DNA of 64,000 bases from Acidobacteriota bacterium (lineage in GTDB: Bacteria; Acidobacteriota; Thermoanaerobaculia; Multivoradales; JAGPDF01): the NCBI GenBank assembly GCA_012521815.1, contig JAAYLR010000141.1, positions 414 through 64,413 on the forward strand. Direction: 5' to 3'. Every line of letters starts with the position of its first letter. Within the stretch, counting starts at the first letter, position 1. The notes under the pieces were generated by a model, which did not search any database, was not told the DNA's origin, and worked only from the letters and a program-made list of their open reading frames with translations. The position numbers and the translations under genes were made by a program. Of this stretch, positions 6,332-61,594 are shown one piece after another.

Positions 6332-6997
6332 ATGTACGCGCGCCTCCTCGATCTCCGCCTGGCCCCCGGCGCCACCCCGGCGTTCGCCGGCCTCTACCGC
6401 CAACGGATCTCGCCGACCCTCACCGCGACCCCCGGCTGCCTCGGCGCCGTGGCCCTCGCGGCGACGGGGCACGAGGAGAAGATCCTCTCCCTCACCCTCT
6501 GGCGGGCCGCCGAGGCCGCCGACGCCTACGACCGGGAGGGCCGCTTCGGCCAGCTCCTCGGCGAGACCGCCTCTCTCTTCCCCGGCCGGGACCGGGACGC
6601 CGATCCGCTCGACGACGGGGGCGAAGAGCTCGTCATCGAGGGGTATGCCGCCGAGCTCGCGCTGCCGCCGGCGCTCGGCAGGGCGCTGAGCGGCGTCACC
6701 TTCGCCCGCACCATCGTGGTCGAGGCCGCCGCCGGACGGGAGGAAGAGATCGAGCGGCGCGCCTGGGCGGCCGTCGACAGGGCCGCCGAGGAGGCGCTCG
6801 GCCTCGTCTCGATCTTCCTCATGCGCGGCCTCGACCGGCGGGAGCGGACGCTCGTCCTCGGCCTCTGGGAGAGCGAGGAGGCGGCCGGTCGGTGGGAGCG
6901 CTCCGAGCCGCACCTCGCGCTCCTGCGCGATCTCGAGAGCGCCGGGCTCGCGGCCGAGATCACGCCTTACCGGGTGCTCTGCGCGGGCGCCTTCTGA
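6332..6997 (+). CDS. hypothetical protein with two tandem ABM/Dabb-like (antibiotic biosynthesis monooxygenase-like) halves
   Basis: 221 aa, GGAG RBS. Both halves show an ...L.LW.S.EAA.A... pattern (LSLTLWRAAEAADAY and LVLGLWESEEAAGRW). Low-confidence family call. Confidence 0.5.
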   Translation: MYARLLDLRLAPGATPAFAGLYRQRISPTLTATPGCLGAVALAATGHEEKILSLTLWRAAEAADAYDREGRFGQLLGETASLFPGRDRDADPLDDGGEELVIEGYAAELALPPALGRALSGVTFARTIVVEAAAGREEEIERRAWAAVDRAAEEALGLVSIFLMRGLDRRERTLVLGLWESEEAAGRWERSEPHLALLRDLESAGLAAEITPYRVLCAGAF

Positions 6998-7581
6998 GCG
7001 ATCACCGCCAGCAGCTCGTCGACGATCCGCAGCGTCAACCCCCAGATCGTCCGCCCCTCGTAGCGGACGCACGGCGTCGGCAGCGGCACCCCGCGAAGGA
7101 CCCAGGTGAAGGCGCTGCGGTGAGCCGGTTCGGCGAGGTAGGCGAGCGGCACCCAGAGCGCCTCCTGGACCTCGGCGCTCGCCGTGAACGCGGGATCGCC
7201 GTGGATCGCGAAGACGAACGGCGCGACGCTGTGCGGGAGCCGGCCGTGCCGCAGATGGGTGCGGACCTCGGAGAGCTGCCCGAGCAGGCGGCCTCCCGCT
7301 TCGAGGTCGAGCGCGAGCTCCTCGCGCGTCTCCCGGATCGCCGCCGCCAGCGGACTGGCGTCGTCCGGATCGACCCGGCCGCCGGGCAGCCCCATCTGCC
7401 CCGACCAGGGGTCGCGCGGGTGCTCGGCCCGGCGGATGAAGAGGAGCTCGGCGCCCGGTTCGCGATCGCGGAGCACCGCCGCCACCGCCGCCTTGTGCGC
7501 CAGGAGCACCTCCTCCTCGCGGCGGGGTGCGAACCCGCGAAGCGCCGAGCCGGCACGGGCGACGTCGTAACGAACGGCCAT
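6967..7581 (-). CDS. NUDIX hydrolase, CoA pyrophosphatase-like
   Basis: Nudix box GLPGGRVDPDDASPLAAAIRETREELAL preceded by the NuCoA-like LFIRRAEHPRDPWSGQMGLPGG. Start chosen at MAVRYDV (7581); the track ORF starts 34 codons earlier in Arg-rich shadow. Confidence 0.8.
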   Translation of the reverse strand: MAVRYDVARAGSALRGFAPRREEEVLLAHKAAVAAVLRDREPGAELLFIRRAEHPRDPWSGQMGLPGGRVDPDDASPLAAAIRETREELALDLEAGGRLLGQLSEVRTHLRHGRLPHSVAPFVFAIHGDPAFTASAEVQEALWVPLAYLAEPAHRSAFTWVLRGVPLPTPCVRYEGRTIWGLTLRIVDELLAVIAQKAPAQSTR

Positions 7582-7622
7582 CGCCACAGATTCTCGCACC
7601 GGGTAAGCTCGGGCGGCAGCCC

Positions 7623-7976
7623 ATGCGCTCACCCGGCTCCTCCCGCCCCGTCTACGCCACCGGCCGCGGCCGCCTCTGCCCACGCTGCGGCGCGCCGGTG
7701 GACGCCTGCCGCTGCGCCGCGACGGCCGCCGAGCCGCTCCCGGCGCGCATCGAACCGGTGCTGCGCATCGAGCGCGCCGGCCGCGGCGGCAAGACGGTGA
7801 CGGTGATCGCCGGCCTGCCGCGCAACCGGCCGTTCCTCCAGGAGCTCGCCGCCGAGCTGAAGCGCGCCTGCGGCAGCGGCGGCACCGCGGGCGACGGCCA
7901 GGTGGAGATCCAGGGCGACCACCGCGAGACGGTGCGCGCGCGGCTCGCCGCCAGGGGCTGGCGCGTCAGGGGCTGA
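7623..7976 (+). CDS. yciH: translation initiation factor SUI1/YciH family
   Basis: MRSPGSSRPVYATGRGRLCPRCGAPVDACRC...RIERAGRGGKTVTVIAGL...LKRACGSGGT...EIQGDHRETVRARLAARGWRV, a typical YciH. It lies divergent from the NUDIX gene across a 41-bp gap. Confidence 0.85.
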   Translation: MRSPGSSRPVYATGRGRLCPRCGAPVDACRCAATAAEPLPARIEPVLRIERAGRGGKTVTVIAGLPRNRPFLQELAAELKRACGSGGTAGDGQVEIQGDHRETVRARLAARGWRVRG

Positions 7977-7992
7977 CCCGTAGAATCGGGAG

Positions 7993-8751
7993 ATGCGCGT
8001 CTCCCGCCTCGGCCCCGCCGCCTTCTCGATCGAGTTCGCCACCGAAGAGGAGCTCTTCGCCGAGCACCGCGCGCATCTCGGTGCCGGCGGGCTCAGGCTG
8101 CCCTGCGACGGCGAGGAGCTCCCGCTCTTCGCCCCCCTCACCCTCACGCTGCGCCTCGCCGGCCGCGACGAGGTGGCGGCCACCGCCCGCGTGGTCGGGA
8201 GCCTCGGCGGCGAGCTCGCGATCGCTCTCGACGGCCCGCCCGCCGCCCTCCTCGACGCCCTCCTCGCGGCGGCGCCCGTGGCCGCGCCAGCGGCGCCGTC
8301 CGCGGCGCCCGAGGAGGATCCGGAGGAGTCCGATTCGACCCCCGAGGGAACGCTCTGGGAGCGGCTGCGCAGCCTGAACCGGAACCAGCGTCTCCTCCTC
8401 GCTCCGAAGGCGGGGAGGGCCGAACGCGCGCTGCTCGTCCAGGAGAGCGACGCGCAGGTGCTCTTCGCGCTGCTGAAGAACCCCCGCCTCACCCTCGACG
8501 AGGTGGTGCGGGTGGCCAAATCCTCCTTCCTGAGCTTCCAGATGGCCGAGCTGATCCTCAAGACCAGCCAGTGGATCGGCAACCTCGACGTCCGCCTGGC
8601 GCTCGTCCACAACCCGAAGACGCCGGTCCCGTTCGCGCTGCGCCTGCTCCCCACCCTCCCCGATTCCGAGGTCCGGGCGATCGCCAAGGGCGCGGCCACG
8701 AGCATGGCGCTCAAGCAGGCGGCGCTGAAGCGGGTCCAGGGCTACTCCTGA
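7993..8751 (+). CDS. hypothetical protein (possible PilZ-like N-terminal domain)
   Basis: 252 aa, GGGAG RBS. N-terminus has RVSRL...(23 aa)...LGAGGLRL, weakly PilZ-like (RxxxR ... D/NxSxGG). Ala/Pro linker, then a conserved-looking alpha-helical C-terminal domain. No confident family. Confidence 0.55.
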   Translation: MRVSRLGPAAFSIEFATEEELFAEHRAHLGAGGLRLPCDGEELPLFAPLTLTLRLAGRDEVAATARVVGSLGGELAIALDGPPAALLDALLAAAPVAAPAAPSAAPEEDPEESDSTPEGTLWERLRSLNRNQRLLLAPKAGRAERALLVQESDAQVLFALLKNPRLTLDEVVRVAKSSFLSFQMAELILKTSQWIGNLDVRLALVHNPKTPVPFALRLLPTLPDSEVRAIAKGAATSMALKQAALKRVQGYS

Positions 8752-47497: not shown

Positions 47498-49351
47498 TCA
47501 GGCGGCGCGGCCGTACTGGAGCTGATAGAGGCGGTAGTAGATCCCGCGCCGGGCGACGAGCTCGGCGTGGGTACCTTCCTCGCGCAGCTCCCCCTTGTGG
47601 AGGACGAGGATCCGGTCCGCCCGCTGGATCGTCGAGAGGCGATGGGCGATCACCAGGCTGGTGCGGCCCGCGAGCAGCCGGTCGAGTGCCGCCTGGAGGA
47701 GCCGCTCGGTCTCCGAGTCGACCGAGGCGGTGGCCTCGTCGAGGATCAGCACCCGCGGATCGAAGGCGAGGGCGCGGGCGAAGGCGAGGAGCTGCTTCTG
47801 CCCGACCGAGAAGCCGGCGCCCCGTTCCCGCACCGGCGCCGCGAACCCGCCGGGGAGCCGCTCGATGAAGCCGAGCGCCTGCGCTTCGGCGGCCGCGTGG
47901 CGGAGCCGCTCGTCGCCGATCGCCGTCTCGCCGAGCCGCAGGTTGCCGGCCACCGACCCGGAGAAGAGGAAGACGTCCTGGAGGATCACTCCCACCGCCC
48001 GCCGCAGGCTGGCGAGGTCCCAGGCCCGCACGTCCACCCCGTCGAGCCGTACCGCCCCCGCCTGGACGTCGTAGAAGCGCAGCAGGAGGTTCGCGAGCGT
48101 CGACTTCCCCGCCCCGGTATGGCCGACGATCGCCACCATCTCCCCCGGCGCCACCCTGAAGGAGACGTTGCGCAGCACCGGCTCGCCGGGCAAATAGCTG
48201 AAATCGACGCCGTCGAGCTCGATCGCCCCCGCCACTCGCGCTGGGCGGTGCAGGTTCGGTGGCGCCGTCACCGCGGGCGGGGTGTCGAGCAGGACGAAGA
48301 TCCGCTCCGAGCTCGCCATCGCCGCCTGCAGCACGTTGTACTTCTCCGACAGGTCGGCGAGCGGCTGATAGAAGCGCTGGGCATACTGGAGGAACGCCAC
48401 CAGGGCGCCCACCGAGAGGGTGCCCCGCACCGCCTGCCCGCCCCCCACCCAGAGCACGAGCCCGAGACCGGCCGCGGTCAGCAGCTCGACCCCGGGGTAG
48501 TAGACGGCGTAGTAGAAGATGCCGCGCACGTGGGCGTCGCGGTGGTCGCGGTTGTGCCGCGCGAACCGCGTCCGGGCCGCGGCCTCGCCCCCGAAGAGCT
48601 GCACCACCGCCATCCCGGCGATCTGCTCCTGCAGGAAGGCGTTGATCCGCGCCAGCAGCACCCGGACCTCGCGGAAGCTCGCCCGGGCCCGGAGCTTGAA
48701 CCAGAGGGTGAGCAGGAAGAGCAGCGGCAGCACCGCGAAAGCCGAGAGCGCGAGCCGCCAGTCGAGCCAGAAGAGGACCCCGACGATCCCCCCGAGCTGG
48801 AGCACGTCTCCGAAGAGGGTGACGATGCCCGAGCTGAACAGCTCGTCGAGGGCGTCGACGTCGCTCGTCGCCCGGGTCACCAGCCGGCCGACCGGAGTCC
48901 GGTCGAAGAAGGCCACCTCCAGCCGCTGCAGGTGGGCGAAGATCTCCGCCCGCAGGTCGGCCATCACCCGCTGGCCGACCATCTGCATCAGGTAGCCCTG
49001 GCCGTAGACGACGCCGAACCCCGCGACGAGCGAGACGAGGTAGACGAGCGCGGCGACGGCGAGCCCGGTGGCGGGGTCGGGCGCGAGATCGTAGCGGGCG
49101 AGGAGCGCCGCCACCTGCCGGCTCACCGCCGCCCGCGGCGCCGCGGGATCGCCGGGGGCGACGAAGAGGTCGAGCACCACCGCCGTGGCCAGCGGGCCGA
49201 CCAGCTGGAGCAGGGCGGAGGCGGCGATCAGCACGACCGCGAGCACCGTGGCGCCGCGGTACGGGTGCAGGTAGCCGAGCAGCCGCCGCATCAGCCGGGC
49301 GTCGTAGGTACGCTCGAGGGCCTCCTCCTCGTGGGGCGCGTTCCCGCTCAC
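47498..49351 (-). CDS. ABC transporter, fused permease/ATPase exporter (MsbA-like)
   Basis: 6-TM domain plus an NBD (GHTGAGKST, LSVGQKQLLAFARA, ILDEATASVD). Start uncertain: GTG at 49351 (VSGNAPHEEE...) or ATG at 49291 (MRRLLGYLHPY); neither has a strong SD. Confidence 0.8.
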   Translation of the reverse strand: MSGNAPHEEEALERTYDARLMRRLLGYLHPYRGATVLAVVLIAASALLQLVGPLATAVVLDLFVAPGDPAAPRAAVSRQVAALLARYDLAPDPATGLAVAALVYLVSLVAGFGVVYGQGYLMQMVGQRVMADLRAEIFAHLQRLEVAFFDRTPVGRLVTRATSDVDALDELFSSGIVTLFGDVLQLGGIVGVLFWLDWRLALSAFAVLPLLFLLTLWFKLRARASFREVRVLLARINAFLQEQIAGMAVVQLFGGEAAARTRFARHNRDHRDAHVRGIFYYAVYYPGVELLTAAGLGLVLWVGGGQAVRGTLSVGALVAFLQYAQRFYQPLADLSEKYNVLQAAMASSERIFVLLDTPPAVTAPPNLHRPARVAGAIELDGVDFSYLPGEPVLRNVSFRVAPGEMVAIVGHTGAGKSTLANLLLRFYDVQAGAVRLDGVDVRAWDLASLRRAVGVILQDVFLFSGSVAGNLRLGETAIGDERLRHAAAEAQALGFIERLPGGFAAPVRERGAGFSVGQKQLLAFARALAFDPRVLILDEATASVDSETERLLQAALDRLLAGRTSLVIAHRLSTIQRADRILVLHKGELREEGTHAELVARRGIYYRLYQLQYGRAA

Positions 49352-49487
49352 GGGCCGGACGATACCGCACCGGGACGGGGCGGAACGGGCCGACCCGGGG
49401 TGCGAAAGATGCCGCTTCCCGCATCCGGGGCTTGGATGTAGACTCCGGGGAGCCATCTGCCGGAAGGGCCGCAAGGGAAGGAGTGCC

Positions 49488-50624
49488 ATGCCGCCGACTC
49501 TCAACGCGCTGCTGAAGACCATGGTGGAGCAGGGGGGTTCCGATCTCCACATCACCACCAACTCCCCGCCCCAGATCCGGGTCGACGGCGTTCTCCACGC
49601 CCTCGACATCCCCCCGATGTCGCCCAGCGACACGAAACAGATCTGCTACGCCATCCTCACCGACAACCAGAAACACCGCCTCGAGGAGAACCTCGAGATC
49701 GACTTCTCCTTCGGCATCAAGGGGCTCTCCCGCTTCCGCGCCAACGTCTACCATCAGAGGGGGGCCATCGCCGGCGCCTTCCGGACGATCCCCTACGAGA
49801 TCCGCTCCTTCCGGGATCTCGGCCTGCCGCCGGTGGTGGAGAAGATCTGCGAGAAGCCGCGCGGGCTCGTGCTGGTGACCGGCCCCACCGGCTCCGGCAA
49901 GACGACGACGCTCGCGGCGATGCTCGACAAGATCAACCGGGAGCGCCACGAGCACATCGTCACCATCGAGGACCCGGTCGAGTACCTCCACTCGCACAAG
50001 AAGTGCATCGTCAACCAGCGCGAGCTCCACGCCGACACCCACAGCTTCGCCAACGCGCTGCGTTCGGCGCTGCGGCAGGATCCCGACGTGGTGCTGATCG
50101 GCGAGATGCGCGACTACGAGACGGTCGAGTCGGCGCTCCGCATCGCCGAGACCGGCCACCTCACCTTCGCCACCCTCCACACCAACAGCGCCGCGCAGAC
50201 GATCAACCGTATCGTGGACATCTTCCCCGCCCACCAGCAGGGGCAGATCCGCGTGCAACTCTCGTTCGTGCTCGAAGGCATCCTCTGCCAGTCGCTCCTG
50301 CCGCGCGTCTCCGGCAAGGGCCGGGCCCTCGCCATGGAGATCCTGGTTCCCAACTCGGCGATCCGCAACCTGATCCGCGAGGACAAGGTGCACCAGATCT
50401 ACGGCATGATGCAGACCGGACAGGCCAAGCACGGGATGCAGACCTTCAACCAGTCCCTGGCCACGCTCTACTTCCGGCGCCAGATCAGCCTGCAGACCGC
50501 GCTCGCCCGCTCTTCGTATCCGGACGAGCTGCAGGAGATCATCGCCCGTGGTCCCTCCGCGGTCGGCCTCGGGCCGCAGGGGGCGGAGAAGCCGGGGAAC
50601 TCGACCGCTGCCGTCAGGAGCTGA
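49488..50624 (+). CDS. pilT: type IV pilus retraction ATPase PilT
   Basis: 378 aa; GSDLHITTNSPPQIRVDG; Walker A GPTGSGKTT; AAGGAG RBS. Confidence 0.95.
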   Translation: MPPTLNALLKTMVEQGGSDLHITTNSPPQIRVDGVLHALDIPPMSPSDTKQICYAILTDNQKHRLEENLEIDFSFGIKGLSRFRANVYHQRGAIAGAFRTIPYEIRSFRDLGLPPVVEKICEKPRGLVLVTGPTGSGKTTTLAAMLDKINRERHEHIVTIEDPVEYLHSHKKCIVNQRELHADTHSFANALRSALRQDPDVVLIGEMRDYETVESALRIAETGHLTFATLHTNSAAQTINRIVDIFPAHQQGQIRVQLSFVLEGILCQSLLPRVSGKGRALAMEILVPNSAIRNLIREDKVHQIYGMMQTGQAKHGMQTFNQSLATLYFRRQISLQTALARSSYPDELQEIIARGPSAVGLGPQGAEKPGNSTAAVRS

Positions 50625-50627
50625 GCC

Positions 50628-51833
50628 ATGCCGAACTTCGTCTGGAAGGGGAAGACCCGGACCGGCGCCCTGCAGGAGGGCGTGCTGCTCGCCGACTCCC
50701 GTGACGCGGCGCTCGCCGTGCTGCGGCGCCAGAACATCCAGGTCACCAACCTGCGGGAGAAGGGCAAGGAGGTCCGCCTCCTGCCGCGGCTGCCCCAGGG
50801 GATCGACGCCAAACGGGTCGCGGTCTTCACCCGGCAGTTCTCGGTGATGCTCGATGCCGGCCTGCCCCTCGTGCAGTGTCTCGAGATCCTCGGCGAGCAG
50901 GAGGAGAACCGGCGGTTCCGGGAGATCATCAACCAGGTGCGCAGCGACGTCGAGCAGGGCTCCTCGCTCGCCGACGCGATGCGCAAGCACCCGGTGGCCT
51001 TCAACAACCTCTACACCAACATGATCGCCGCCGGCGAGGCGGGCGGCATCCTCGACATCATCCTCCAGCGGCTGTCGACCTACATCGAGAAGGCGGTCAA
51101 GCTCAACGCCCAGGTGAAATCGGCGCTGGTCTACCCGACGACCGTCATCGTCATCGCCGTCCTGGTCGTGATCGTCATCCTCTGGAAGGTGATCCCGGTC
51201 TTCGCCCAGCTCTTCGCCGGGCTCGGCGGCGAGCTGCCGTTCCTCACCCGCATGGTGGTCGGCGCGAGCAACTTCCTCGGCCGCTACTTCATCTTCGTCG
51301 CCATCGGCGTGGTGGCGCTCGTCTACGCCGTGCGCGCCTGGCACAAGACGCCGAGCGGGGCGCGGATCATCGACGCCGGCCTGCTGCGGATCCCGGCGAT
51401 CGGCATGCTGCTGCGCAAGATCGCGGTCGCCCGCTTCTGCCGCACCCTCTCGACGCTGACCTCCTCCGGCGTGCCGATCCTCGACGGTCTCGAGATCACC
51501 GCCAAGACGGCGGGCAACGCGATCATCGAGGACGCGGTGATGGCGGTGCGCAAGAACGTCGAGGAGGGCAAGACGATCTCCGGACCGCTCGCCGAGACCA
51601 AGGTCTTCCCGGCGATGGTCGTGCACATGATCAACGTCGGCGAACAGACCGGCGCGCTCGACCAGATGCTCTCGAAGATCGCGGACTTCTACGAGGAAGA
51701 GGTGGACATGGCGGTGGCCAACCTCATGAAGCTGATCGAACCGCTCATGATCCTCTTCCTCGGCACAGTCATCGGCACCATCGTGGCCGCGATGTACCTG
51801 CCCATGTACGCGATTCTCCAGAAGCTCGGCTAG
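50628..51833 (+). CDS. pilC: type IV pilus platform protein PilC (GspF family)
   Basis: 401 aa; two GspF repeats; AGGAG RBS 3 nt after the pilT stop. Confidence 0.9.
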   Translation: MPNFVWKGKTRTGALQEGVLLADSRDAALAVLRRQNIQVTNLREKGKEVRLLPRLPQGIDAKRVAVFTRQFSVMLDAGLPLVQCLEILGEQEENRRFREIINQVRSDVEQGSSLADAMRKHPVAFNNLYTNMIAAGEAGGILDIILQRLSTYIEKAVKLNAQVKSALVYPTTVIVIAVLVVIVILWKVIPVFAQLFAGLGGELPFLTRMVVGASNFLGRYFIFVAIGVVALVYAVRAWHKTPSGARIIDAGLLRIPAIGMLLRKIAVARFCRTLSTLTSSGVPILDGLEITAKTAGNAIIEDAVMAVRKNVEEGKTISGPLAETKVFPAMVVHMINVGEQTGALDQMLSKIADFYEEEVDMAVANLMKLIEPLMILFLGTVIGTIVAAMYLPMYAILQKLG

Positions 51834-51867
51834 CAGCGCCCTGTTCCCCACCCCGGCCACCGCCGCG

Positions 51868-53550
51868 GTGCCAGCGGCCCGCCTCCTCGGCCAGCTCCGC
51901 TGGCTCATCGTGATCCGGCTGGTGATGATCACCAGCGTGGCGGTGCCGTACTTCCTGCTCCGCCTCACCGCCGCCCGGGAAGGGCAGATCCCCTTCTTCG
52001 GCTCCGGCGCGCCCGACCTGCTGCTCCTGCTCACCGGCGCCACCTACCTCGCGAGCCTCGTCTATTTCGCGCTGCTGCGTCCTCTCGCTTGTCGCGCCGT
52101 CCTCCAGGCCGCGATCCAGTTCGGGGGCGACCTGGTGCTCATCACCGGGCTCGTCTACTGGTTCGGCGGCATCGCCAGCCCGTTCTCGCTGCTCTATCTG
52201 CTCGTCATCGCCTACGCCGCGGTGATGCTCCGGAGGCAGGCGGCGTTCTGGACCGCCACCGCCGCCTACATCGCCTACGCCGCCCTCCTGCTCGCGCTCT
52301 ATCGCGGCTGGATCCCCGGGCGCCCGGACACGCTCACCGGCGACGAGGGCTTCACGCGCCTCCTCTACAACCTCGCCGTCCACCTCTTCGGCTTCTACGC
52401 CGTCGCCCTTCTCACCTCGCATCTGGCTTTGACGCTGAGCCGCTCCGAGCGCGCGCTGGCCGAACAGAGCGACAACCTCGCCGATCTGCGGGTGGCGCAC
52501 CACGATGTCGTGCAGTCGATCCCGAGCGGCCTGCTCACCACCGATCTCGACGGCGCCGTCACCCGCCTGAACCGCGCGGCCGAGGAGATCCTCGGCCGCA
52601 GCGAAAGCGCCCTGCTCGGTGCGCACGTGGCCACGACCGGCCTCTTTTCGCGCTCGCGCTGGACGCACGAGACCGAGCTCGAGCGGCGGGGCGCCTACCA
52701 CCGTGCCGAGACCGAGCTCGCGCGGGGCGAGGCCCGGATCCCGATCGGCTACTCGCTCGGCGAGATCACCGACGCCCACGGCCGCCGCTCCGGCTTCGTC
52801 GTGGTCTTCCAGGACCTCTCCGAGTGGCGCCGGCTGCAGGAGGAGGTGCGGGTCAAGGACCGGATGGCGGCGGTCGGCGAGCTCGCCGCCGGGCTCGCGC
52901 ACGAGGTCGGCAACCCGCTCGCCGCGATCTCCGGCTCGGTGCAGATGCTCTCGGCCGCGCCCGGCGTCGACCCCGGCCAGCGCCAGCTGCTCACCATCGT
53001 GCACCGGGAGAGCCAGCGGCTCGACCGCACCATCAAGGGGTTCCTGCGCTTCGCGCGCCCCCGCGACCAGGCGGTGGTCGAGTTCGACATCGCCCGCCTC
53101 GTCGCCGAGCATTTCGAGCTGCTTCGCAACTCCGAGGAGGCCGGCCCGAGGCACCGGCTGCGGCTCGCGCTCGATCAGCAGTCGACGACCGCGATCGCCG
53201 ATCCCGACCAGGTGAGCCAGATCTTCTGGAACCTCGCCCGCAACGCCCTGCGCGCGATGCCCGACGGCGGCGACCTCGTGGTGAGCGGGCAGCGGCAGGA
53301 CGAGCGCTACCGGTTGAGCTTCCGCGACAGCGGCCACGGCATGGATCCCGAACAGCGCGCCCGTCTCTTCCAGCCCTTCCAGTCGTTCTTCGACGGCGGT
53401 ACCGGTCTCGGGATGGCGATCGTCTACCGTCTCGTCCAGGAGCACGACGGCCGCGTGAGTGTGGAGAGCAAGGAGGGCGCCGGGACGACGATCACCGTCG
53501 AGCTGCCGCTGCGGCCGGCGGCAGCGGCGTCCGAGAGGGGAACGGCATGA
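51868..53550 (+). CDS. pilS: PilS-like sensor histidine kinase
   Basis: GTG start; N-terminal 5-6 TM, a PAS-like segment, H-box GELAAGLAHEVGNPL, HATPase (GTGLGMAIV). Confidence 0.85.
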   Translation: MPAARLLGQLRWLIVIRLVMITSVAVPYFLLRLTAAREGQIPFFGSGAPDLLLLLTGATYLASLVYFALLRPLACRAVLQAAIQFGGDLVLITGLVYWFGGIASPFSLLYLLVIAYAAVMLRRQAAFWTATAAYIAYAALLLALYRGWIPGRPDTLTGDEGFTRLLYNLAVHLFGFYAVALLTSHLALTLSRSERALAEQSDNLADLRVAHHDVVQSIPSGLLTTDLDGAVTRLNRAAEEILGRSESALLGAHVATTGLFSRSRWTHETELERRGAYHRAETELARGEARIPIGYSLGEITDAHGRRSGFVVVFQDLSEWRRLQEEVRVKDRMAAVGELAAGLAHEVGNPLAAISGSVQMLSAAPGVDPGQRQLLTIVHRESQRLDRTIKGFLRFARPRDQAVVEFDIARLVAEHFELLRNSEEAGPRHRLRLALDQQSTTAIADPDQVSQIFWNLARNALRAMPDGGDLVVSGQRQDERYRLSFRDSGHGMDPEQRARLFQPFQSFFDGGTGLGMAIVYRLVQEHDGRVSVESKEGAGTTITVELPLRPAAAASERGTA

Positions 53551-54968
53551 GCGCCCGGCTGCTCGTGGTCGACGACGAGCCGAGCATGCTCGACATGCTC
53601 TCGCTGCTCTGGCGTGCCGAGGGTTACGAGGTCGAGACCGCCCGCTCGGTCGGCGAGGCGCGCGAACGGCTCGCCGAGCGGCCCGTCGACCTGGTGCTCT
53701 GCGACATCCTGATGCCGGACGGCAACGGCCTCGAGCTGCTGCGGGAGATCAAGGCGTCCGACCCGCGGGTGGCGGTGATCATGATGACCGCCTACACCTC
53801 GACGAAGAGCGCCCTCGAGGCGATGAAGCTCGGCGCCTACGACTACATCTCCAAGCCGTTCGCCGATCTCGAGGAGCTCAAGCTGCTCGTCGCCAAGGCG
53901 CTCGAGAAGACCCAGCTGGTCGACGAAAACGTCTATCTGCGCGGCGAGCTCGAGCGGCGTTACGCCTTCGACCGGATCGTCGGCCGCAGCCCCCGGATGC
54001 GCGCCGTCTTCGAGCTCGTGGAGCGGGTCGCGCGCACCCATTCCACCGTCCTGATCCAGGGCGAGAGCGGCACCGGCAAGGAGCTCGTCGCCCGGGCGAT
54101 CCACTTCGCGAGCCCGCGCGCCCGGCAGCGCTTCCTCTCGGTCAACTGCGGCGCCCTGCCCGAAACCCTGCTCGAGAGCGAGCTGTTCGGCCACGAGCGG
54201 GGGGCCTTCACCGGCGCGGTGCGCGAGAAGCGGGGGCTCTTCCAGGAGGCCAACCGCGGCACCCTCTTCCTCGACGAGATCGGCGACATGTCGCTGCCGA
54301 TGCAGGTGAAACTGCTCCGGGCGCTGCAGGATCGCACCGTGCGCAAGGTCGGCGGCACCGTCGAGGAGCCGGTGGACGTGCGGATCATCGCCGCCACGAA
54401 CCAGAACCTCGCCGAGCGGCTCGCGCAGGGGACCTTCCGCGAGGACCTCTTCTACCGGATCAACGTGATTCCGATCGAGCTCCCGCCGCTGCGTGAACGG
54501 CGGGAGGACATCCCGCTGCTGGTGCACCACTTCCTGCTCGAGAGCAGCCGCCGGCTGGGGATCGAGCCGCGGCGGATCTCGGTCGAGGCGATGCGGCGGC
54601 TCGAGACCCACTCCTGGCCGGGCAACGTGCGCGAGCTCGAGAACCTCGTGGAGCGTACGCTCGCCCTCTCCACCGCCGAGGTCATCACCACCGACGATCT
54701 CCCGCTCGAGCTGCTCATCCCGGGCCAGACCGGGGCCGCGACTCCGACCCTGCCCTCCGAGGGGCTCGATCTCGAAGCCCACCTCGACGGCCTCCGGCGG
54801 GAGCTGATGCGGCAGGCGCTCGATCGCACCGGTGGCCATCAGGGGCAGGCGGCCGAGCTGCTCGGGATGAGCCTCCGTTCGTTTCGCTACTATGCCGGCA
54901 AGTGCGGGCTCGCGGGACGGCGGGACGACGAGGAGGCGGCCGCCACGCCCCCCACCGCCGAACCATGA
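53547..54968 (+). CDS. pilR: sigma-54-dependent response regulator PilR (NtrC family)
   Basis: ATGA overlap with pilS. REC domain (LLVVDDEPS...D54), AAA+ sigma54-interaction domain ([14 protein letters not shown]), C-terminal Fis-type HTH. Confidence 0.9.
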
Positions 54969-55023
54969 GAAACCGGTCTCTCCGGACCGCCGCGTCCGGA
55001 CGCCGGAGCCCGCGAGGCCGCCG

Positions 55024-58000
55024 ATGAGCCATCACCCTCCGGTCCGCAGTTCCTGCCGGGTACTGCTCCTCGCCGTCACCCTGCTGCTCGCCTCCCCCGC
55101 CGGTGGCGCCATGGCGGCGACCGATCCGGCGGCGCGCGCCCAGCCGGTCCTGCAGATCTACGGCGATCGCGACGGGCTGCCCCACAACACCGTGAGCGAG
55201 ATCGCCCTCGATCGCGAGGGGCGCCTCTGGATCGGCACCCACGACGGCGTCGCCACCTTCGACGGCCGCGCCTGGCGTACCATCGAGCTTCCCCAGCCGC
55301 ACAAGACCCACCGGATCCGGTCGCTCCTCCCCGCGCACGACGGCGGGCTCTGGATCGGCACCGAGGCGGGTGGCCTCGTCCGCTGGCGTGAAGAGGGCGC
55401 CCAGAGCATCGAGCAGGTGCGCGTGGGCGCAATCGACCTGCCGCTGAACCGCGTCAACGCGCTCCTCGAGCTCGAGACCCCGCAGGGAGAGCGCGAGCTC
55501 TGGGCGGGAACCCATGCCGGCGGCATCTTCCGCCGGCGCGGCGGCGAATGGCACCGCTACGGTACCGAGGAAGGGCTCCCGACGCTCCAGGTCTGGTCGC
55601 TCCTCGCCACCCGCGACGCGGCCGGCGCCGCCACGATCTGGGCCGGGACCCTCCGGGGGCTCGTGCGGCTCGAACCGGATGGAAACCGCTTCGAGCCGGT
55701 GCCCGGCGCGCCGGAAGCGCCGGTCGTCCGGCTCACCGCCACCCGGGACGACGCCGGCAGGCCGATCGTCTGGGCGGCGACGTTTGGCCAGGGCCTCCAT
55801 CGCCTCCAGGGCACGGCCTGGACCCGCTGGACCCGGACGGAAGGGCTGCCCAACGATTTCGTCATCGCCCTCTCCCCCTCCCGGGCCCCGGACGGCCGGT
55901 CCGGGGTCTGGGTCGGCACCGACGGCGGCGGCGTCGCGCGCGTCAGTGAAGGCGTCGATCAGGTCTTCGACGAACAGAGCGGCCTGTCGGCCACCGCCGC
56001 CGTCTACGCGCTGCTCGAGACCACCACCGCCGACGGCGTCTCAGCGCTCTGGATCGGGATGCGCAACGGCGGCCTCGCCCGGCTCCGGCGGTACGGCTGG
56101 AAGAGCTTCGTCCTCCATGACGAGGGGGCCCGGCTGCCGGTGAGCGCTCTCCTGGAGACCACCGATCCCCAGGGGAACCCCCGCTACTGGCTCGGCACCG
56201 ACGGCGGCGGCCTCTTCCGTCTCGACAGCGACGGCTGGCAGCGGCTCACGGGGCCGGGCGCGCCCCTGCCCGACGACACCATCCGTTGCCTGCTCGCGCG
56301 CGGCGAATCGGGCCGGGAGGAGGTCTGGGTCGGGACCCGGAACCGTGGCCTGATGCGGTTCGCGGCCGGACGGTGGCAGACCTTCGACCGCGCCGGCGGA
56401 GCGCTGCCCGATGACATCGTCGAGGCCCTCCTCGAGACCTCCGAAGCCGCCGGAGAGTCGATCCTCTGGGTCGGTACCCGCACCGGCCTCGTGCGCTTCG
56501 ATGGCCGCCGGTGGGAACGGGTCGCGACTCCTGGATGGCCGCTCGAAAGCCGTTTCCAGACGTTCGCGTCGACCCGCGACCCGAACGGCGGGCTCGTGCT
56601 CTGGGTCGGCACGGACGACGGTCTCGGGCGTCTCGAGAACGGCTCCTGGCGACTGCTCGGCACGGAGGCCGGGCTGCCGAACCCGATCGTGCGCTCGCTG
56701 CACGCCGGCACCGGCCCCGGAGGGGAGCCGGCGCTCTGGGTCGGCACCACCGGGGGCGGGGTCGCGCTGATCGATCTCGCCGCGGAGAGCCGCCCGCCCA
56801 TCCTCCTCGATCGGGGCACCCTGCCCGGGCTGCCCAACGACGTCATCCACGGGATCACGGAAGACGCGACCGGCAGCGTCTATCTCCTCACGAACCGCGG
56901 GGTCGCCCGCCTGACCCCGGAGCCGAACCCCGGACCGGATGGGGCGAGCTACCGGGTCACGAGCTTCAACCACGAGGACGGCCTGCCGCTCAACCAGGGG
57001 AACCGGGGGGCGGTGATGCGCGACCGCCACGGGCGGATCTGGGTGGGGACGGTCGGCGGCGCGGCGTTCTACGAGCCGGGCAGCGAGCGTCCCGACCAGG
57101 TCGCCAAACGGCTTCTCCTGCGTGGGCGGCTGCTCCCGGAAGGGCGGCTCCTGGAGTCCGGCGAACGGCTCTCGTACCGGTCGTCGAGCATCCGCTTCGA
57201 CTACACCCTGCTCTCCTTCTTTCGCGAGGAGACGAGCGCGTACCGTTCCCGTCTCGTCGGCCTCGAGGCGCAACCGACCTCCTGGGGCAACGAGAGCGCC
57301 CGCGAGTTCGTACACCTGCCGGCCGGCAACTACCGGTTCCAGGCCTGGGGGCGCGACTATGCCGGCAACGTCACGGGGCCCGTGGAGATCGCCTTCGCGA
57401 TCCGCCCCGCCCCCTGGCAGACGCTCTGGGCACGGCTGGCGCTCCTCGTGCTGATCGTCGGACTCGTCGCCCTGATCGTACGCCATCGTTCCCGCCGGCA
57501 TGCGCGGCGCGAGCGCGAGCTGACCGAGCAGGTGGAGGCGCGTACCCGGCAGCTGCACGAGGCGAACCTGGCCCTGATGAAGCTCTCCTACGCCGATCCG
57601 GTCACCTCGGTCGCCAACCGGCGGCGATTCGACGAGGCCCTCGAGCACGAGTGGCGGCGGGCGGAGCGGATGCGGATACCGCTCGCTCTGATCATGATCG
57701 ACGTCGACCGTTTCAAGGAGTTCAACGACACCTACGGCCACCAGCGGGGCGACGAGGTCCTGCGCACGGTGGCCACCGCGCTGAACGATGGTCTGAAGCG
57801 GAGCGGCGACCTCCTTGGCCGTTACGGCGGCGAGGAGTTCGGAGTCATCCTCCCCGACACCAGCCTCGACGGCGCCGTGCTGGTTGCCGAACAGCTGCGG
57901 CGGCGGATCAAACGGCTGGCGATCGCGCACGACGCTTCCCACGTCGCGCCGCACGTGACGATCAGTTGCGGCGTCGCCTCCCTCGAGCCGGACAAGGGCG

Positions 58001-58083
58001 GCGACATCCACCTGCTGCTGCGACAGGCCGACGCGGCGCTCTACCGCGCCAAGGAGCGCGGGCGCGACCGCGTCGCCACCTGA
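55024..58083 (+). CDS. diguanylate cyclase with N-terminal periplasmic beta-propeller (two-component-regulator-propeller / Y_Y_Y-like) sensor, TM, GGDEF domain
   Basis: Signal sequence MSHHPPVRSSCRVLLLAVTLLLASPAGGAMA. About 12 LWIGT..GGL propeller repeats. TM WARLALLVLIVGLVALIV, coiled coil, then GGDEF with RYGGEEFGVIL active site. Confidence 0.85.
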   Translation: MSHHPPVRSSCRVLLLAVTLLLASPAGGAMAATDPAARAQPVLQIYGDRDGLPHNTVSEIALDREGRLWIGTHDGVATFDGRAWRTIELPQPHKTHRIRSLLPAHDGGLWIGTEAGGLVRWREEGAQSIEQVRVGAIDLPLNRVNALLELETPQGERELWAGTHAGGIFRRRGGEWHRYGTEEGLPTLQVWSLLATRDAAGAATIWAGTLRGLVRLEPDGNRFEPVPGAPEAPVVRLTATRDDAGRPIVWAATFGQGLHRLQGTAWTRWTRTEGLPNDFVIALSPSRAPDGRSGVWVGTDGGGVARVSEGVDQVFDEQSGLSATAAVYALLETTTADGVSALWIGMRNGGLARLRRYGWKSFVLHDEGARLPVSALLETTDPQGNPRYWLGTDGGGLFRLDSDGWQRLTGPGAPLPDDTIRCLLARGESGREEVWVGTRNRGLMRFAAGRWQTFDRAGGALPDDIVEALLETSEAAGESILWVGTRTGLVRFDGRRWERVATPGWPLESRFQTFASTRDPNGGLVLWVGTDDGLGRLENGSWRLLGTEAGLPNPIVRSLHAGTGPGGEPALWVGTTGGGVALIDLAAESRPPILLDRGTLPGLPNDVIHGITEDATGSVYLLTNRGVARLTPEPNPGPDGASYRVTSFNHEDGLPLNQGNRGAVMRDRHGRIWVGTVGGAAFYEPGSERPDQVAKRLLLRGRLLPEGRLLESGERLSYRSSSIRFDYTLLSFFREETSAYRSRLVGLEAQPTSWGNESAREFVHLPAGNYRFQAWGRDYAGNVTGPVEIAFAIRPAPWQTLWARLALLVLIVGLVALIVRHRSRRHARRERELTEQVEARTRQLHEANLALMKLSYADPVTSVANRRRFDEALEHEWRRAERMRIPLALIMIDVDRFKEFNDTYGHQRGDEVLRTVATALNDGLKRSGDLLGRYGGEEFGVILPDTSLDGAVLVAEQLRRRIKRLAIAHDASHVAPHVTISCGVASLEPDKGGDIHLLLRQADAALYRAKERGRDRVAT

Positions 58084-58200
58084 CGCGGATCGTTCCGGCC
58101 CCCGGGAGCGCATCCCCGACCCGTCGCGAAGCTCCGCATTAGACTCCACGACAGACCCCGCTCGCCGCTCCGGCGAAACCGGCACCCGAGGAGCCCGACC

Positions 58201-59961
58201 ATGCCTCGCCTCGTCATCCCCTTCCTGTTCCTGATCCTGACGGCGGGTTTCACGACCGCCGCCACCGCGAGCGAACCGCCGAGCGCCGGCGAGCAGGCCC
58301 GGCTCGTGGCCGCCGAGCAGGCCGGGCGGCTTGCCCCCGGCCTCGCGATGGCGCTCGCCCGTGGCGAGACGATGCCGGTGATCGTCCGCTTCGCGTCCCC
58401 CGCCGGGGAGGCGGAGCCCGCCCGCCGCGGCGCCGCGCTGCTCGCCCGGGTACCCGCCTCCGAACGCAGCGGCGAGCGGCTCTTCACGACCGTGCCGGGG
58501 ATGGCGCTCTCCCTCTCCGCCCGGGGCCTCGCCGCGCTGCTCGCCGAGCCCGAGGTCCTCCGCGTCGATCCCGACGCCGGCGGCGGCGCCCTGCTCGCCG
58601 AAACGGTGCCGCTCGCCGGGGGCGCGGCGCTCCAGATGGCCGGTTGGACCGGCGCCGGCAGCGTGGTGGCCCTCCTCGATTCCGGGATCGACGCCGCCCA
58701 TCCCGATCTCGCCGGCGCCCTCGACGGGGAAGCCTGCTTCTGCACCACCGCGGACGGCGCCGGCTGCTGCCCGGGTGGCGGCACGACCCGCACCGGCCCC
58801 GGCAGCGCCGCCGACGACTTCGGGCACGGCACCCATCTCGCGGGGATCATCACCGGCGACGGTCACGTCGCTCCGGTCGGCATGGCCCCCGAGGCCAGGC
58901 TGGTGGCCGTCAAGGTGCTCGACGCCACGGGGGCGTTCGCCTTCAGCTCCGACATCGTCGCCGCGCTCGACTGGATCACCGCCCACCGCCCCGACGTGGA
59001 CGTCGTGAGCCTGAGCCTCGGCACCGGCGCCCTCTTCCCCGGCGTCTGCGACGACGCCACCGCCTACACCCAGCTGCTCGCCGCCGCCGTCGCCAACCTG
59101 CGCGCCCGCGGCGTGCTGGTGCTGGCCGCGAGCGGCAACCGCGGCTCCGGCACCGCGCTTCCGGCCCCCGCCTGCCTGCGGGAGGTCATCGCGGTCGGCG
59201 CCACCTGGGATGCCGACGTCGGCTACCAGGGCACGATGTGTCTGCCCCCCCCCGACGGTCCCGGACCGGACCCGGTCACCGCCCCGGGCCAGATCACCTG
59301 CTTCTCGAACACCAACGCCGAGGTCGCCCTCGTAGCCCCAGGCGCGCCGATCACCTCCACCCGGCTCGGCGGCGGCACGACGACGCTCTACGGCACCTCG
59401 CTCGCCGCCGCGGTGGCGAGCGGCTGCGCCGCGCTCCTGCGCGAGGCGGCCCCGCTCGCCTCCCCCGAGCTGCTCGCCAGCGCCCTCGCCACCTCCGCGA
59501 CCCGCCCCACCGACCGGAAGAACGGCCGCTCCTTCCCGCTCCTCGACTGCGTCCGCGCGCTCGCCGTCGCCCAGAGCGCCAACACCGCCCCCTGCACGCG
59601 CGGCGCCACCACCGCCTGCCTGCTCGGCGGCCGCTTCGAGGTGACGGTCGGCTGGCTCTCCGACGGCCACGCCACCGGCGAGGCGAAGGTCATGGCGTTC
59701 GGGGGCCAGCGGACGGAGTCCGACCAGTCGGTCTTCTTCTACTTCTTCGACGACCAGCCCGAGAACTTCGAGATGGGGGTGAAGGTGCTCGACGGCTGCC
59801 CGATCAACGGCCAGTACTGGGTCTTCATCTCCGGCCTGACGAACCGCGGCTACACGGTGCGGGTGCGCGACAGCGTGACCGGGCGGATCCGTACCTATGC
59901 GAACCCGCTCGGCAACTACCCGCAGACGGTCGGCGACACCGACGCCCTCCCCTGCTCCTGA
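58201..59961 (+). CDS. secreted subtilisin-like serine protease (S8) with an unnamed C-terminal ~110-aa domain
   Basis: Signal peptide; triad D (LLDSGID), H (HGTHLAGI), S (GTSLAAAV). The C-terminal domain FFYFFDDQPENFEMGVKVLDGC...WVFISGLTNRGYTVRVRDSVTGRIRTYANP...DALPCS is shared with the next gene. Confidence 0.85.
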   Translation: MPRLVIPFLFLILTAGFTTAATASEPPSAGEQARLVAAEQAGRLAPGLAMALARGETMPVIVRFASPAGEAEPARRGAALLARVPASERSGERLFTTVPGMALSLSARGLAALLAEPEVLRVDPDAGGGALLAETVPLAGGAALQMAGWTGAGSVVALLDSGIDAAHPDLAGALDGEACFCTTADGAGCCPGGGTTRTGPGSAADDFGHGTHLAGIITGDGHVAPVGMAPEARLVAVKVLDATGAFAFSSDIVAALDWITAHRPDVDVVSLSLGTGALFPGVCDDATAYTQLLAAAVANLRARGVLVLAASGNRGSGTALPAPACLREVIAVGATWDADVGYQGTMCLPPPDGPGPDPVTAPGQITCFSNTNAEVALVAPGAPITSTRLGGGTTTLYGTSLAAAVASGCAALLREAAPLASPELLASALATSATRPTDRKNGRSFPLLDCVRALAVAQSANTAPCTRGATTACLLGGRFEVTVGWLSDGHATGEAKVMAFGGQRTESDQSVFFYFFDDQPENFEMGVKVLDGCPINGQYWVFISGLTNRGYTVRVRDSVTGRIRTYANPLGNYPQTVGDTDALPCS

Positions 59962-59983
59962 TCTTTCCGAGGGAGGCCGCCCG

Positions 59984-61594
59984 ATGACCGCCCCGCAGCC
60001 CGTCCGGCGCCACCACGCCGTCGTCCGGCTCTTCGCCGTCGCCCTTCTGGTCGCCGCCCCCGGGCTTGCGGGTGAGCTCACGCTGCGGCCTCTCGACGGC
60101 GCGGTGCGCCCCGTCGAGAAGATCGTCAACGGCCAGCTCGACTTCGGTCACCCGGCCGTCGGCGCCCTGCTCGGCCCGCAGGGGCTGCGCTGCAGCGCGG
60201 TCCTCGTCGGCTGCCGCACCGCGCTCACCGCCGCCTCCTGTTTCTGCTCGGATCCGTTCACCGGCGAGCCGCTCGCCGGACCGGAGTGCCTCGCCCGGCC
60301 CGAGCTGCTGGACACTGCGGGCCACACGCTCTTCCTCCAGCACCACCCGCCGCTGCCGGTGCAGGAGGCGGTCGTCCACCCCGGCTACGAGCCGGGCGGG
60401 GGCCACGACCTCGCGCTCCTGCGGCTCGGCGCCGCGGCGGCGGGGATCGCCCCGCTGCCGCTCCGGGAGGGCGACCCGCCTGCCCCCGGGAGCCCGGGAG
60501 AGCTGGTCGGCTTCGGGCGCGCCGGCGGCGAGACGGAGGATTGGGGGATGAAGCGCACCGGCAGGGTCGCGCTCGCCGCCTGTGACGGGGTTCCGGACGA
60601 AGGGAACCTCTGCTGGCGGTTCACGGCGCCGCTCCCCGCGCCGGGCGAGGCCGCGAACGCCTGCGACCGGGATGCCGGCGGGGCGCTCATCGTGGCCGGA
60701 AGCATGGGCCCCCGGCTCGCCGGCATCCTCTCCGGCGGCCTCGGCACCGACTGCCTGCCGCCCGACGAGGGGTGGGCCTCGGATGTCACCGCGGCGCGCG
60801 ACTGGATCGTCGCGACCGCGCTGGACGACCCGCTCGCCCCGGCGGCCTGTGGCGACCTGCGCAGCGCGGGCGCGCCGGGGACGTTCGTGCAGGGCAGCCA
60901 CGGCGATCTCGACGGCGCCTCCCCCGACTTTCGCACGACCTTCGCGATCCCCGCCGGAAGCGTGCTGCTGCGGGTCAATCTGAACGGCGACGAGAACGGC
61001 CGCCTCGCCGAGGCGCCGGACGCCGACCTCTACCTGCGCGCCGGCGCGCCGCCCGAGCGCGACGCGTACGACTGCGCGAGCACCGGCAGCGGGCTCTTCG
61101 AGAGCTGCGAGATCGCCGCTCCCGAAGACGGCACCTGGCACGCGCTGGTGAGCCGGGAGGCCGGCGCCGGACCGTTCCAGCTCACGGCGACGAGCTTCGC
61201 CGGCCAGGCGACGGAGTGCAGCCCCGGCCCGCACACCCTCTGTGTCGACGACCAGCCCGGCGACCGGCGGTTCAAGATCGAGATCGACTACTTCTCGCCG
61301 CCGCGCGCCGTCCTCGGCCGCGGCCGGGCGATCCCCCTCGCCGAGCTCGGCGTGAGCCGGGGCGGTCTCTTCTGGTTCTTCACCGCGGACAACCCGGAGG
61401 TGCTCGTCAAGGTGCTCGACGCCTGCACCCCGGCGCTCGGCAACCGGTTCTGGGTCTTCCTCACCGCCGGGACCGACCTCGGCTACAGCCTCACCGTGAC
61501 CGATACCGCGAGCGGGCTCCAGCGCACCTACGCGAACGAGGACGGGGCACCGGCGCTGCCGGTGCAGGACGTCGACGCCTTCCCCTGCCCCTGA
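59984..61594 (+). CDS. trypsin-like (S1) pseudo-protease with the same C-terminal domain (His and Ser of the triad appear substituted)
   Basis: GGGAGG RBS; signal peptide. IVNGQ..., then CRTALTAASC where the trypsin TAAHC His becomes Ser; DLALLRL keeps the Asp; CDRDAGGAL replaces GDSGGP, so Ser becomes Ala. The C-terminal domain is homologous to the S8 C-terminus. Confidence 0.8.
   Translation: MTAPQPVRRHHAVVRLFAVALLVAAPGLAGELTLRPLDGAVRPVEKIVNGQLDFGHPAVGALLGPQGLRCSAVLVGCRTALTAASCFCSDPFTGEPLAGPECLARPELLDTAGHTLFLQHHPPLPVQEAVVHPGYEPGGGHDLALLRLGAAAAGIAPLPLREGDPPAPGSPGELVGFGRAGGETEDWGMKRTGRVALAACDGVPDEGNLCWRFTAPLPAPGEAANACDRDAGGALIVAGSMGPRLAGILSGGLGTDCLPPDEGWASDVTAARDWIVATALDDPLAPAACGDLRSAGAPGTFVQGSHGDLDGASPDFRTTFAIPAGSVLLRVNLNGDENGRLAEAPDADLYLRAGAPPERDAYDCASTGSGLFESCEIAAPEDGTWHALVSREAGAGPFQLTATSFAGQATECSPGPHTLCVDDQPGDRRFKIEIDYFSPPRAVLGRGRAIPLAELGVSRGGLFWFFTADNPEVLVKVLDACTPALGNRFWVFLTAGTDLGYSLTVTDTASGLQRTYANEDGAPALPVQDVDAFPCP

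Follow-up and report, generated by a model that had tools for sequence, protein, structure and literature searches.

Among animals, the pseudoproteases of peptidase family S1 include the beta chains of HGF and MSP, haptoglobin, azurocidin, and protein Z. Bacterial pseudoenzymes have been little studied. Here, we describe an unannotated bacterial pseudoprotease with the chymotrypsin (S1) fold, encoded by an Acidobacteriota bacterium (Thermoanaerobaculia) on contig JAAYLR010000141.1 of assembly GCA_012521815.1. The kind of protein is already known; the member is new. The stretch analyzed covers 64,000 nucleotides (positions 414 to 64,413 of the contig; hereafter, the window), and the pseudoprotease gene lies at 59984..61594 of the window on the + strand, just downstream of a gene for an S8 subtilase. 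It encodes 536 residues (the coordinates include the stop codon) and was delimited from its open reading frame (ORF) and its Pfam matches to Trypsin and PPC (bacterial pre-peptidase C-terminal) domains.

Among bacterial systems, the Umb1 umbrella toxin particle of Streptomyces (8W20/8W22) contains UmbA. [quoted passage not shown] In Streptomyces, umbA, which usually has umbB and umbC nearby, also occurs as an orphan gene away from them, and the authors of that study detected no Umb loci beyond Actinobacteria (PMC11062931). This precedent (Nature 2024) indicates that dead trypsins can serve as key adaptors. In another arrangement, a dead homolog sits beside a live protease and controls or assists it; this is reported for CspC/CspA with CspB in Clostridioides difficile (PMC7200643, PMC6636752) and for MamO with MamE in magnetotactic bacteria (PMC4794232).

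An S1 fold with replaced catalytic residues

The protein is a genuine homolog of peptidase family S1. Pfam Trypsin (PF00089) matched residues 59-275 with an E value of 5.9e-13 and 49.6 bits (cut-off 20.6), and the AlphaFold model, with a predicted local distance difference test (pLDDT) of 82 and a predicted template modeling (TM) score of 0.81, has the two-beta-barrel chymotrypsin fold. Foldseek matched this model to thrombin and kallikrein structures (E ~1e-11, target-normalized TM score ~0.7), and haptoglobin (4x0l), an S1 pseudoprotease, was among the fold matches. A profile of 29 family sequences matched PDB sequences down to an E value of 4e-19. Together, Pfam, the PDB alignments, and Foldseek place the chymotrypsin-fold domain at residues 47-285 (60122..60838, + strand), with a degenerate triad.

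Alignment to crayfish trypsin (2f91) with HMMER set TAASC against TAGHC, DLALLRL against DISLLKL, and CDRDAGGAL against CQGDSGGPL. Thus, Ser85 (codon TCC, 60236..60238) occupies the position of His57, and Asp142 (60407..60409) corresponds to Asp102, which is retained. Arg229, Asp230, and Ala231 (60668..60676; all on the + strand) stand for Gly193, Asp194, and Ser195, so that the oxyanion glycine (now CGG, 60668-60670) and the nucleophile serine (now GCC, 60674-60676) are both replaced and Asp194 is kept. When kallikrein and TMPRSS11D were aligned to the 29-sequence family profile, the triad register was unchanged, and in the family alignment active homologs have TAAHC and GDSGGP in the columns of Ser85 and Ala231. 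Asp142 is invariant in all 29 family sequences, and Ser85, Asp142, and Ala231 are invariant among the nine full-length members of the 90% cluster. A first-pass annotation of this DNA had read by eye a trypsin fold with His changed to Ser, Asp retained, and Ser changed to Ala; each of these details proved correct in the independent alignments and in the fold, with the PF00089 match above its cut-off and with Ser85 and Ala231, instead of a His and a Ser, at the catalytic positions of the PDB and family alignments.

Of the residues expected of an active S1 peptidase, the protein therefore has Asp102 and lacks His57, Ser195, and the oxyanion Gly193. Because Ser195 is replaced by Ala, His57 by Ser, and Gly193 by Arg, serine-protease catalysis is not possible. 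Public annotation nevertheless treats the protein as an ordinary protease: the exact sequence, found on 25 contigs, is recorded at NCBI as 'trypsin-like serine protease [Thermoanaerobaculia bacterium]' (e.g. HPA96584.1). This label is an annotation carry-over, since the protein is without His57 and Ser195. A scan of the pseudoprotease against NCBIfam assigned no family.

The triad register was taken from 2f91 and from the family-profile and PDB alignments, and for residues specific to the inactive relatives described below, only family columns were used. An hmmalign alignment of bovine trypsin to the hidden Markov model of the family was not relied on for the register, as a long insertion after position 57 caused the N-terminal barrel to misalign.

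Catalytic loss is fixed in a clade nested among active enzymes

Homologs of the pseudoprotease (designated below by P numbers, and their loci by L numbers) all came from Thermoanaerobaculia or Acidobacteriota metagenomes and have the order trypsin, PPC, and C-terminal domain. Its members are retained across a group of bacteria from soil and sediment; among species-representative genomes, the closest relative is encoded by the Thermoanaerobaculia metagenome-assembled genome (MAG) ACID-4, at 76% identity. In a neighbor-joining tree, P0001-P0017 formed one clade nested among enzymes with intact triads and the same domain order (P0018-25, P0031, and P0032). The 17 clusters of this dead clade are 45-100% identical, come from many independent metagenomes, and have intact ORFs. 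Ser195 is missing in 17/17, being replaced by Ala, or by Gly in P0005/6. His57 is kept only by P0005/6 and is Ser or Asn in the others. Because only these two keep His57 and none keeps Ser195, the nucleophile serine was lost first and His57 later, at least twice. Arg at the position of Gly193 is shared by this protein and P0002-4, the remaining members of the dead clade having Gly. P0026 represents a separate loss of the triad (Ser, Asp, Glu).

The active Thermoanaerobaculia enzymes P0018-P0025 resemble the pseudoprotease in domain order, overall sequence (42-45% identity), extra cysteines, the K/R|IVNG site, and the C-terminal domain, which is the same one (55% identity). They differ from it in keeping TAAHC and GDSGGP or GDSGSP. 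Examples of them are named 'trypsin-like serine protease' at NCBI. They represent the living ancestral or sister lines from which the dead clade is set apart. The term 'dead paralog' in the first-pass annotation is loose: the adjacent S8 enzyme has an unrelated fold and is not a paralog, and the S1 enzymes that are the live relatives have their genes at other loci.

The dead clade is as conserved as its active relatives, with a mean pairwise identity of the trypsin domain of 0.56 versus 0.58 in the active group. N49, G50, D142, D230, G232, and the cysteines are invariant across the dead clade, and residues near the cleft are conserved specifically within it: position 192 is Asp, position 57 is followed by CFCxDP, and the region of the 220-loop contains a D..W motif. 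Comparison with a 91%-identical ortholog (L065) by the Nei-Gojobori method gave a ratio of nonsynonymous to synonymous substitution rates (dN/dS) of 0.46 for the whole pseudoprotease (p = 3e-4) and 0.39 for its trypsin domain (p = 3e-3), where the p values refer to nonsynonymous changes below the neutral expectation. Among the neighboring genes in this comparison, the S8 gene had a dN/dS of 0.12, the symporter gene downstream 0.24, and the diguanylate cyclase gene upstream 0.34. The pseudoprotease thus evolves faster than its neighbors while remaining under constraint.

Taken at the level of sequence, these results make it very probable that the protein is a non-catalytic S1 homolog maintained by selection. 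The non-catalytic role proposed in the first-pass annotation gains from the loss of catalysis at the true triad positions, its fixation in a clade, and the purifying selection; the particular roles named there (inhibitor, decoy, chaperone, or substrate binding) are not separable on this evidence.

Partial or paired losses were also seen elsewhere. In one MAG (L012), two members of the family are encoded in tandem (4092-5759 and 5713-7467), the first with an intact His/Asp/Ser triad and the second with TAAQC (His57 changed to Gln) and GDSGGP kept, an independent partial loss beside a live paralog. Tandem pairs of distant trypsin homologs were found at L053 5701-7626, L055 663-2886, and L060 5434-7547 (Hyalangium, Myxococcota). 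The upstream gene of these pairs has TAASC or TAGSC and YNGY(S/A)GGP (in L060, only ..AGGP was aligned), with His57 and Asp194 replaced, and the downstream gene has TAAHC and HEGDSGGP. Pairs of a dead and a live S1 protein may be a recurring bacterial arrangement, as far as these sequences indicate.

Retained zymogen and cleft features

The pseudoprotease retains much of what surrounds the triad in S1 proteases. In S1 zymogens, activation cleavage frees an N-terminus that pairs with Asp194, and this orders the cleft. Both elements of this pair, K46|I47-V-N-G and Asp230, are present and conserved, and a K or R directly precedes (I/V)(V/A)NG in 25/27 homologs covering the activation site. The linker that connects the predicted signal peptide to Ile47 (~17 residues) is disordered in the model (pLDDT <50); it resembles a propeptide, spans residues 30-46 (60071..60121, + strand), and ends with Lys46 immediately before Ile47-Val-Asn-Gly. 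Ser214 and Gly216, which belong to the strand that pairs with the substrate backbone, are retained, as are the cysteines that form disulfides in S1 proteases. No replacement nucleophile is conserved in the dead-clade alignment, in which position 57 is Ser, Asn, or His and position 195 is Ala or Gly.

The protein descends from a secreted, active Thermoanaerobaculia S1 enzyme. From the retained features, we propose the following as its most likely course of action. The product would be exported by the Sec pathway, given the signal peptide recognized by eye, and a short propeptide would be clipped after Lys46, whereupon Ile47 would pair with Asp230 by analogy to S1 zymogens. The ordered and inert cleft could then hold a peptide segment of a protein ligand without cutting it. 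The PPC and C-terminal beta domains would bring the pseudoprotease to the same extracellular site as the S8 protease encoded beside it, for which it might be a non-catalytic partner that, for instance, regulates it or binds substrates or inhibitors as a subunit. It is plausible that, once the propeptide is removed, the retained cleft acts as a peptide- or protein-binding module, as the retained features and the precedents of UmbA and HGF suggest.

Linkage to an active S8 subtilase

The gene directly upstream (58201..59961, + strand) encodes an S8 subtilase of 586 residues (Pfam E 4.3e-40) that carries the same C-terminal domain (59566-59958). Its DSGID, HGTH, SGN, and GTSLA motifs line up with the catalytic motifs of solved subtilases, in agreement with the earlier designation of this neighbor as an active S8 protease, which its sequence bears out. 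The S8 stop codon (59959-59961) is followed, after 22 nucleotides, by the ATG of the pseudoprotease. Between them lies a Shine-Dalgarno-like box, GAGGGAGG (59969..59976, + strand, by sequence reading), 8 nucleotides after the stop and 7 nucleotides before the ATG at 59984. Because of this short gap and the box within it, the two genes are likely co-transcribed as one operon. A scan for promoters and terminators between 57800 and 61800 returned no sites and was uninformative at 74% GC.

The order GGDEF cyclase, S8, and pseudoprotease recurs where the pseudoprotease is 91% identical (L065) and 75% identical (L001, L002, and L009). In L064, the locus of P0006, the pseudoprotease is only 52% identical and the S8 ortholog is still present (61-66% identical). 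In that locus, a gene for an active lysyl-endopeptidase-like S1 enzyme with the same C-terminal domain (2154-3986) sits between the S8 gene and the pseudoprotease, which has His, Asp, and Gly at its triad positions. The stop codon of this inserted gene overlaps the start of the pseudoprotease gene, which suggests that the two are translationally coupled. P0005 (L005) likewise has an S1 neighbor (3-1415), with the motifs LTARHC and GGSSGSA, before the end of the contig. The S8 ortholog of L064 (246-2066) has no recorded Pfam match and a run of X in its translation, which suggests ambiguous bases in the assembly, and it was recognized by tblastn only. An empty entry ('-') in the precomputed Pfam column thus does not mean that a domain is absent.

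The S8 gene therefore precedes the pseudoprotease in four lineages (the window, L065, L001/L002/L009, and L064) down to 52% identity, and only in the subclade P0001-6. Accordingly, the link to the S8 protease made in the first-pass annotation survives in these four lineages and does not extend to the whole clade. In the sister subclade P0007-17, no protease neighbor was found at the five loci examined. All five instead have an adjacent gene for a secreted protein of ~270-310 residues that ends in RRPRRR, sometimes amid polysaccharide genes. Copies of this protein of ~300 residues lie at L003 8949-9881, L007 8006-8926, L006 4273-5094 (- strand), and L010 ~7620-8430 (- strand). They are 41-53% identical to the L003 copy, end in GRRPRRR, and give a weak ConA-like (Laminin_G_3) hint; a profile of the protein found no relative among PDB sequences. 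It may be the partner of P0007-17.

Farther upstream, on the same strand, a type IV pilus-type cluster occupies 49308-58083 of the window. It encodes the PilB ATPase, the PilC platform protein, a kinase resembling PilS, a sigma-54 activator resembling PilR, and, last, a large Reg_prop-GGDEF diguanylate cyclase. The succession of cyclase, S8, and pseudoprotease genes was observed in L001 and L065, the latter having the PilR-like activator in addition. The downstream gene, on the opposite strand, encodes an SDF symporter.

A C-terminal domain common to many secreted proteins

The last ~125 residues of the pseudoprotease and of the S8 protease are 33% identical (E 3e-18), and this is the only region that the two have in common. 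In the pseudoprotease, the domain spans residues 406-536 (61199..61591, + strand). It is an unnamed beta domain: the last ~130 residues had no Pfam or NCBIfam match, and a Foldseek search of its model (pLDDT 96.4) against the PDB gave nothing significant, the best E value being 0.47. Besides 61199-61591 and 59566-59958 of the window, the domain was noted at L019-L049. A profile of 31 copies detected it in 10,527 representative proteins at E <= 1e-3. It often occurs in 2-4 tandem copies and is usually C-terminal, at times N-terminal. Carriers with a named organism are mostly Thermoanaerobaculia, Holophagales, or other Acidobacteriota. Its fusion partners are proteases of families S8 and S1, Kazal inhibitors, and plastocyanin-like, PKD, fn3, and cytochrome domains; in some short proteins it stands alone.

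By its distribution among these sequences, the domain is a general module of the secreted proteins of this lineage. Because it is so widespread, its presence in both proteins argues for co-localization and not for specific pairing. The first-pass annotation had supposed a targeting or binding domain shared by the two proteins; the shared ~125 residues are real, and they are not specific to this pair, occurring as they do in more than 10,000 proteins. The modeled structure is consistent with a new fold that may serve as a lineage-wide surface-anchoring or binding module. P0026, a metagenome protein of 693 residues, begins and ends with a copy of the domain in its S8-type variant. This placement argues that the domain serves in binding and is not a sorting signal confined to the C-terminus.

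Gene model and domain layout

The ATG at 59984 was taken as the start of the pseudoprotease because the GAGGGAGG box precedes it. A longer form starting at 59897 was rejected: it runs into the S8 gene, and no homolog has the additional N-terminal residues. An antisense ORF of 1362 residues (56041-60129) was also rejected: it has no homolog support, and since the GC content of the window is ~74%, long spurious ORFs are expected in other frames. A filter on third-position GC retained the pseudoprotease frame.

The predicted signal peptide (residues ~1-29; 59984..60070, + strand) was recognized by eye in the translation, with a basic n-region (RRHH), a hydrophobic core, and GLAG, and the N-termini of the homologs resemble it. 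Between the chymotrypsin-fold and C-terminal domains, a PPC beta-sandwich covers residues ~300-405 (60881..61198, + strand), as judged by Pfam, the strands of the model, and a match to the PPC domain of the metalloprotease 2luw. Pfam PPC (PF04151) matched residues 319-390 with an E value of 1.7e-11 and 45.2 bits (cut-off 25.9).

Relation to UmbA

The top PDB sequence matches of the pseudoprotease were 8w20_C (E 4e-7) and 9oee_A (E 2e-5), both named 'Secreted esterase'. In PDB and UniProt-style names of UmbA homologs, this term is an annotation carry-over. We found no literature on a trypsin-like 'secreted esterase' of Streptomyces or on 8W20 under that name. UmbA fragments taken from the PDB alignments scored 17-36 bits against dead members of the family and 9-32 bits against active ones (P0032 excepted, with 2-3 bits). 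Because active and dead members score about equally, the likeness to UmbA appears to reflect a generic S1 relationship together with a convergent change of His to Ser. No UmbB- or UmbC-like (ALF-repeat toxin) genes were present among the annotated genes of the window or of the related loci; the search used the Pfam annotation of 32 window ORFs, and the window holds housekeeping genes. Membership in the Umb system was therefore rejected: UmbB or UmbC genes were not found in the window or the related loci, there is no lectin propeller and no specific kinship to UmbA, and the dead clade nests in local active enzymes.

Discussion

The protein described here is, with high probability, a catalytically dead trypsin preserved by selection. 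That it is also a functional partner of the probably co-transcribed S8 protease is a tentative proposal, to which the conserved gene order points. A more elaborate version strikes us as speculative and on the whole unlikely: the dead trypsin and the S8 protease would form a secreted protease system of two proteins from two families, in which the dead trypsin lacks catalysis. The S8 protease or, in relatives, the inserted S1 enzyme might clip it at Lys46|Ile47; its cleft would then clamp a peptide strand of the S8 protease or of a substrate of that protease, in the way UmbA holds UmbB, gating or targeting the subtilase at the cell surface or in the matrix, with the widespread, structurally novel C-terminal domains anchoring both proteins. 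Several points weigh against a selected binding role beside the S8 protease. The dN/dS of the pseudoprotease is ~4 times that of the S8 gene (0.46 versus 0.12), a difference that means either weaker constraint or partly diversifying selection. The C-terminal domain is so common that sharing it is weak evidence of a specific partnership, and P0007-17 lack a protease neighbor. With Arg229 in place of the oxyanion-hole glycine, the cleft could be blocked rather than open to a ligand. The signal peptide was read by eye and the propeptide cleavage was proposed by analogy, and it is formally possible that another part of the fold has gained an active site.

Other explanations account for parts of the same evidence. 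The dead cleft might be a decoy that soaks up canonical serine-protease inhibitors, whether those of competitors or the cell's own, and so spares co-secreted proteases. This is supported by the retention of the cleft-forming elements, by an evolution faster than that of the neighbors, as an arms race would predict, and by proteins of the lineage that combine a Kazal-type inhibitor domain with this C-terminal domain (P0253 and P0294). However, the changes of Gly193 to Arg and of His57 to Ser alter the site contacted by canonical inhibitors, and a bait with the shape of an S1 enzyme would shield S1 enzymes better than the adjacent S8 protease. We regard a decoy as improbable, and it would be a special case of a binding role instead of an exclusive alternative. 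It is very unlikely that the protein is still a hydrolase with a non-canonical active site, in which Ser85 or another residue would act as the nucleophile. The serine at position 57 is adjacent to the retained Asp142, and the names 'Secreted esterase' (of the top PDB match) and trypsin-like serine protease (at NCBI) would agree with an enzyme, but positions 57 and 195 vary in the clade with no replacement nucleophile conserved, and none of the remaining His and Ser residues is a conserved hallmark of the dead clade. The 'esterase' name of UmbA is, moreover, annotation only, and the purified trypsin domains of UmbA were without protease activity (PMC11062931).

That the gene is a recently inactivated, decaying one, or a sequencing or assembly artifact without function, is hardly tenable. 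Its dN/dS does exceed that of the neighboring genes; against this, ORFs are intact and the same substitutions recur across 17 clusters that are 45-100% identical, the exact protein is found on 25 contigs, conservation equals that of the active relatives, dN/dS is significantly <1, and the fold is confidently predicted. We likewise give scant credence to the idea that Actinobacteria are not alone in having umbrella-toxin-like particles and that the protein is a spoke of the UmbA type, its dead trypsin gripping an adaptor like UmbB and its C-terminal domains acting as the lectin for target cells. The two best PDB matches are UmbA proteins that have TAASCF..D in common with it, the architecture is analogous, and orphan umbA genes are known in Streptomyces; however, no UmbB- or UmbC-like genes lie in the 64-kb window, UmbA scores alike against active and dead members, a PPC and a different beta domain take the place of the beta-propeller lectin, and Umb loci were not found outside Actinobacteria (PMC11062931).

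A dead trypsin that is kept for binding thus remains the reading we favor. Its family records a stepwise death of an S1 active site, in which Ser was lost and then His at least twice, with live relatives in the same lineage; it is a natural series for asking what protease folds get reused for. The conserved, probable operon with the S8 gene supplies a concrete and testable partner, and the C-terminal domain may help to explain how secreted proteins are displayed in Thermoanaerobaculia and Holophagales.

Compared with the systems described so far, the pseudoprotease is most like UmbA. Both are bacterial proteins, secreted or predicted to be so, with a trypsin fold, an incomplete triad, TAASCF..D with His57 changed to Ser, and C-terminal beta-rich domains. 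They differ in that UmbA has beta-propeller lectins, comes from Actinobacteria, and works with UmbB and UmbC, whereas the pseudoprotease has PPC and a different beta domain of ~125 residues and comes from Acidobacteriota; the alignment of the two covers the N-terminal barrel only. On the sequence comparisons, UmbA is the closest mechanistic analog, with an independent loss of catalysis, and not a member of the pseudoprotease's family. With CspC/CspA-CspB and MamO-MamE, the subclade P0001-6 shares the conserved linkage to an active protease. In those systems, both partners belong to the same family (S8 with S8, or trypsin-like with trypsin-like), whereas here a dead S1 protein stands beside a live S8 enzyme.

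The animal S1 pseudoproteases are alike in having the chymotrypsin fold with triad residues replaced and in using the fold as a protein-binding module. HGF and haptoglobin further resemble the pseudoprotease in keeping Asp194, and they undergo an activation-type cleavage like the one predicted for it. They differ in their partner domains, which in the animal proteins are kringle, CCP, or Gla/EGF domains, and continuity with the bacterial clade exists only at the level of family S1. If the cross-family two-protein system were true, bacteria would have independently evolved a pseudoprotease that is activated by cleavage, as HGF is in animals.

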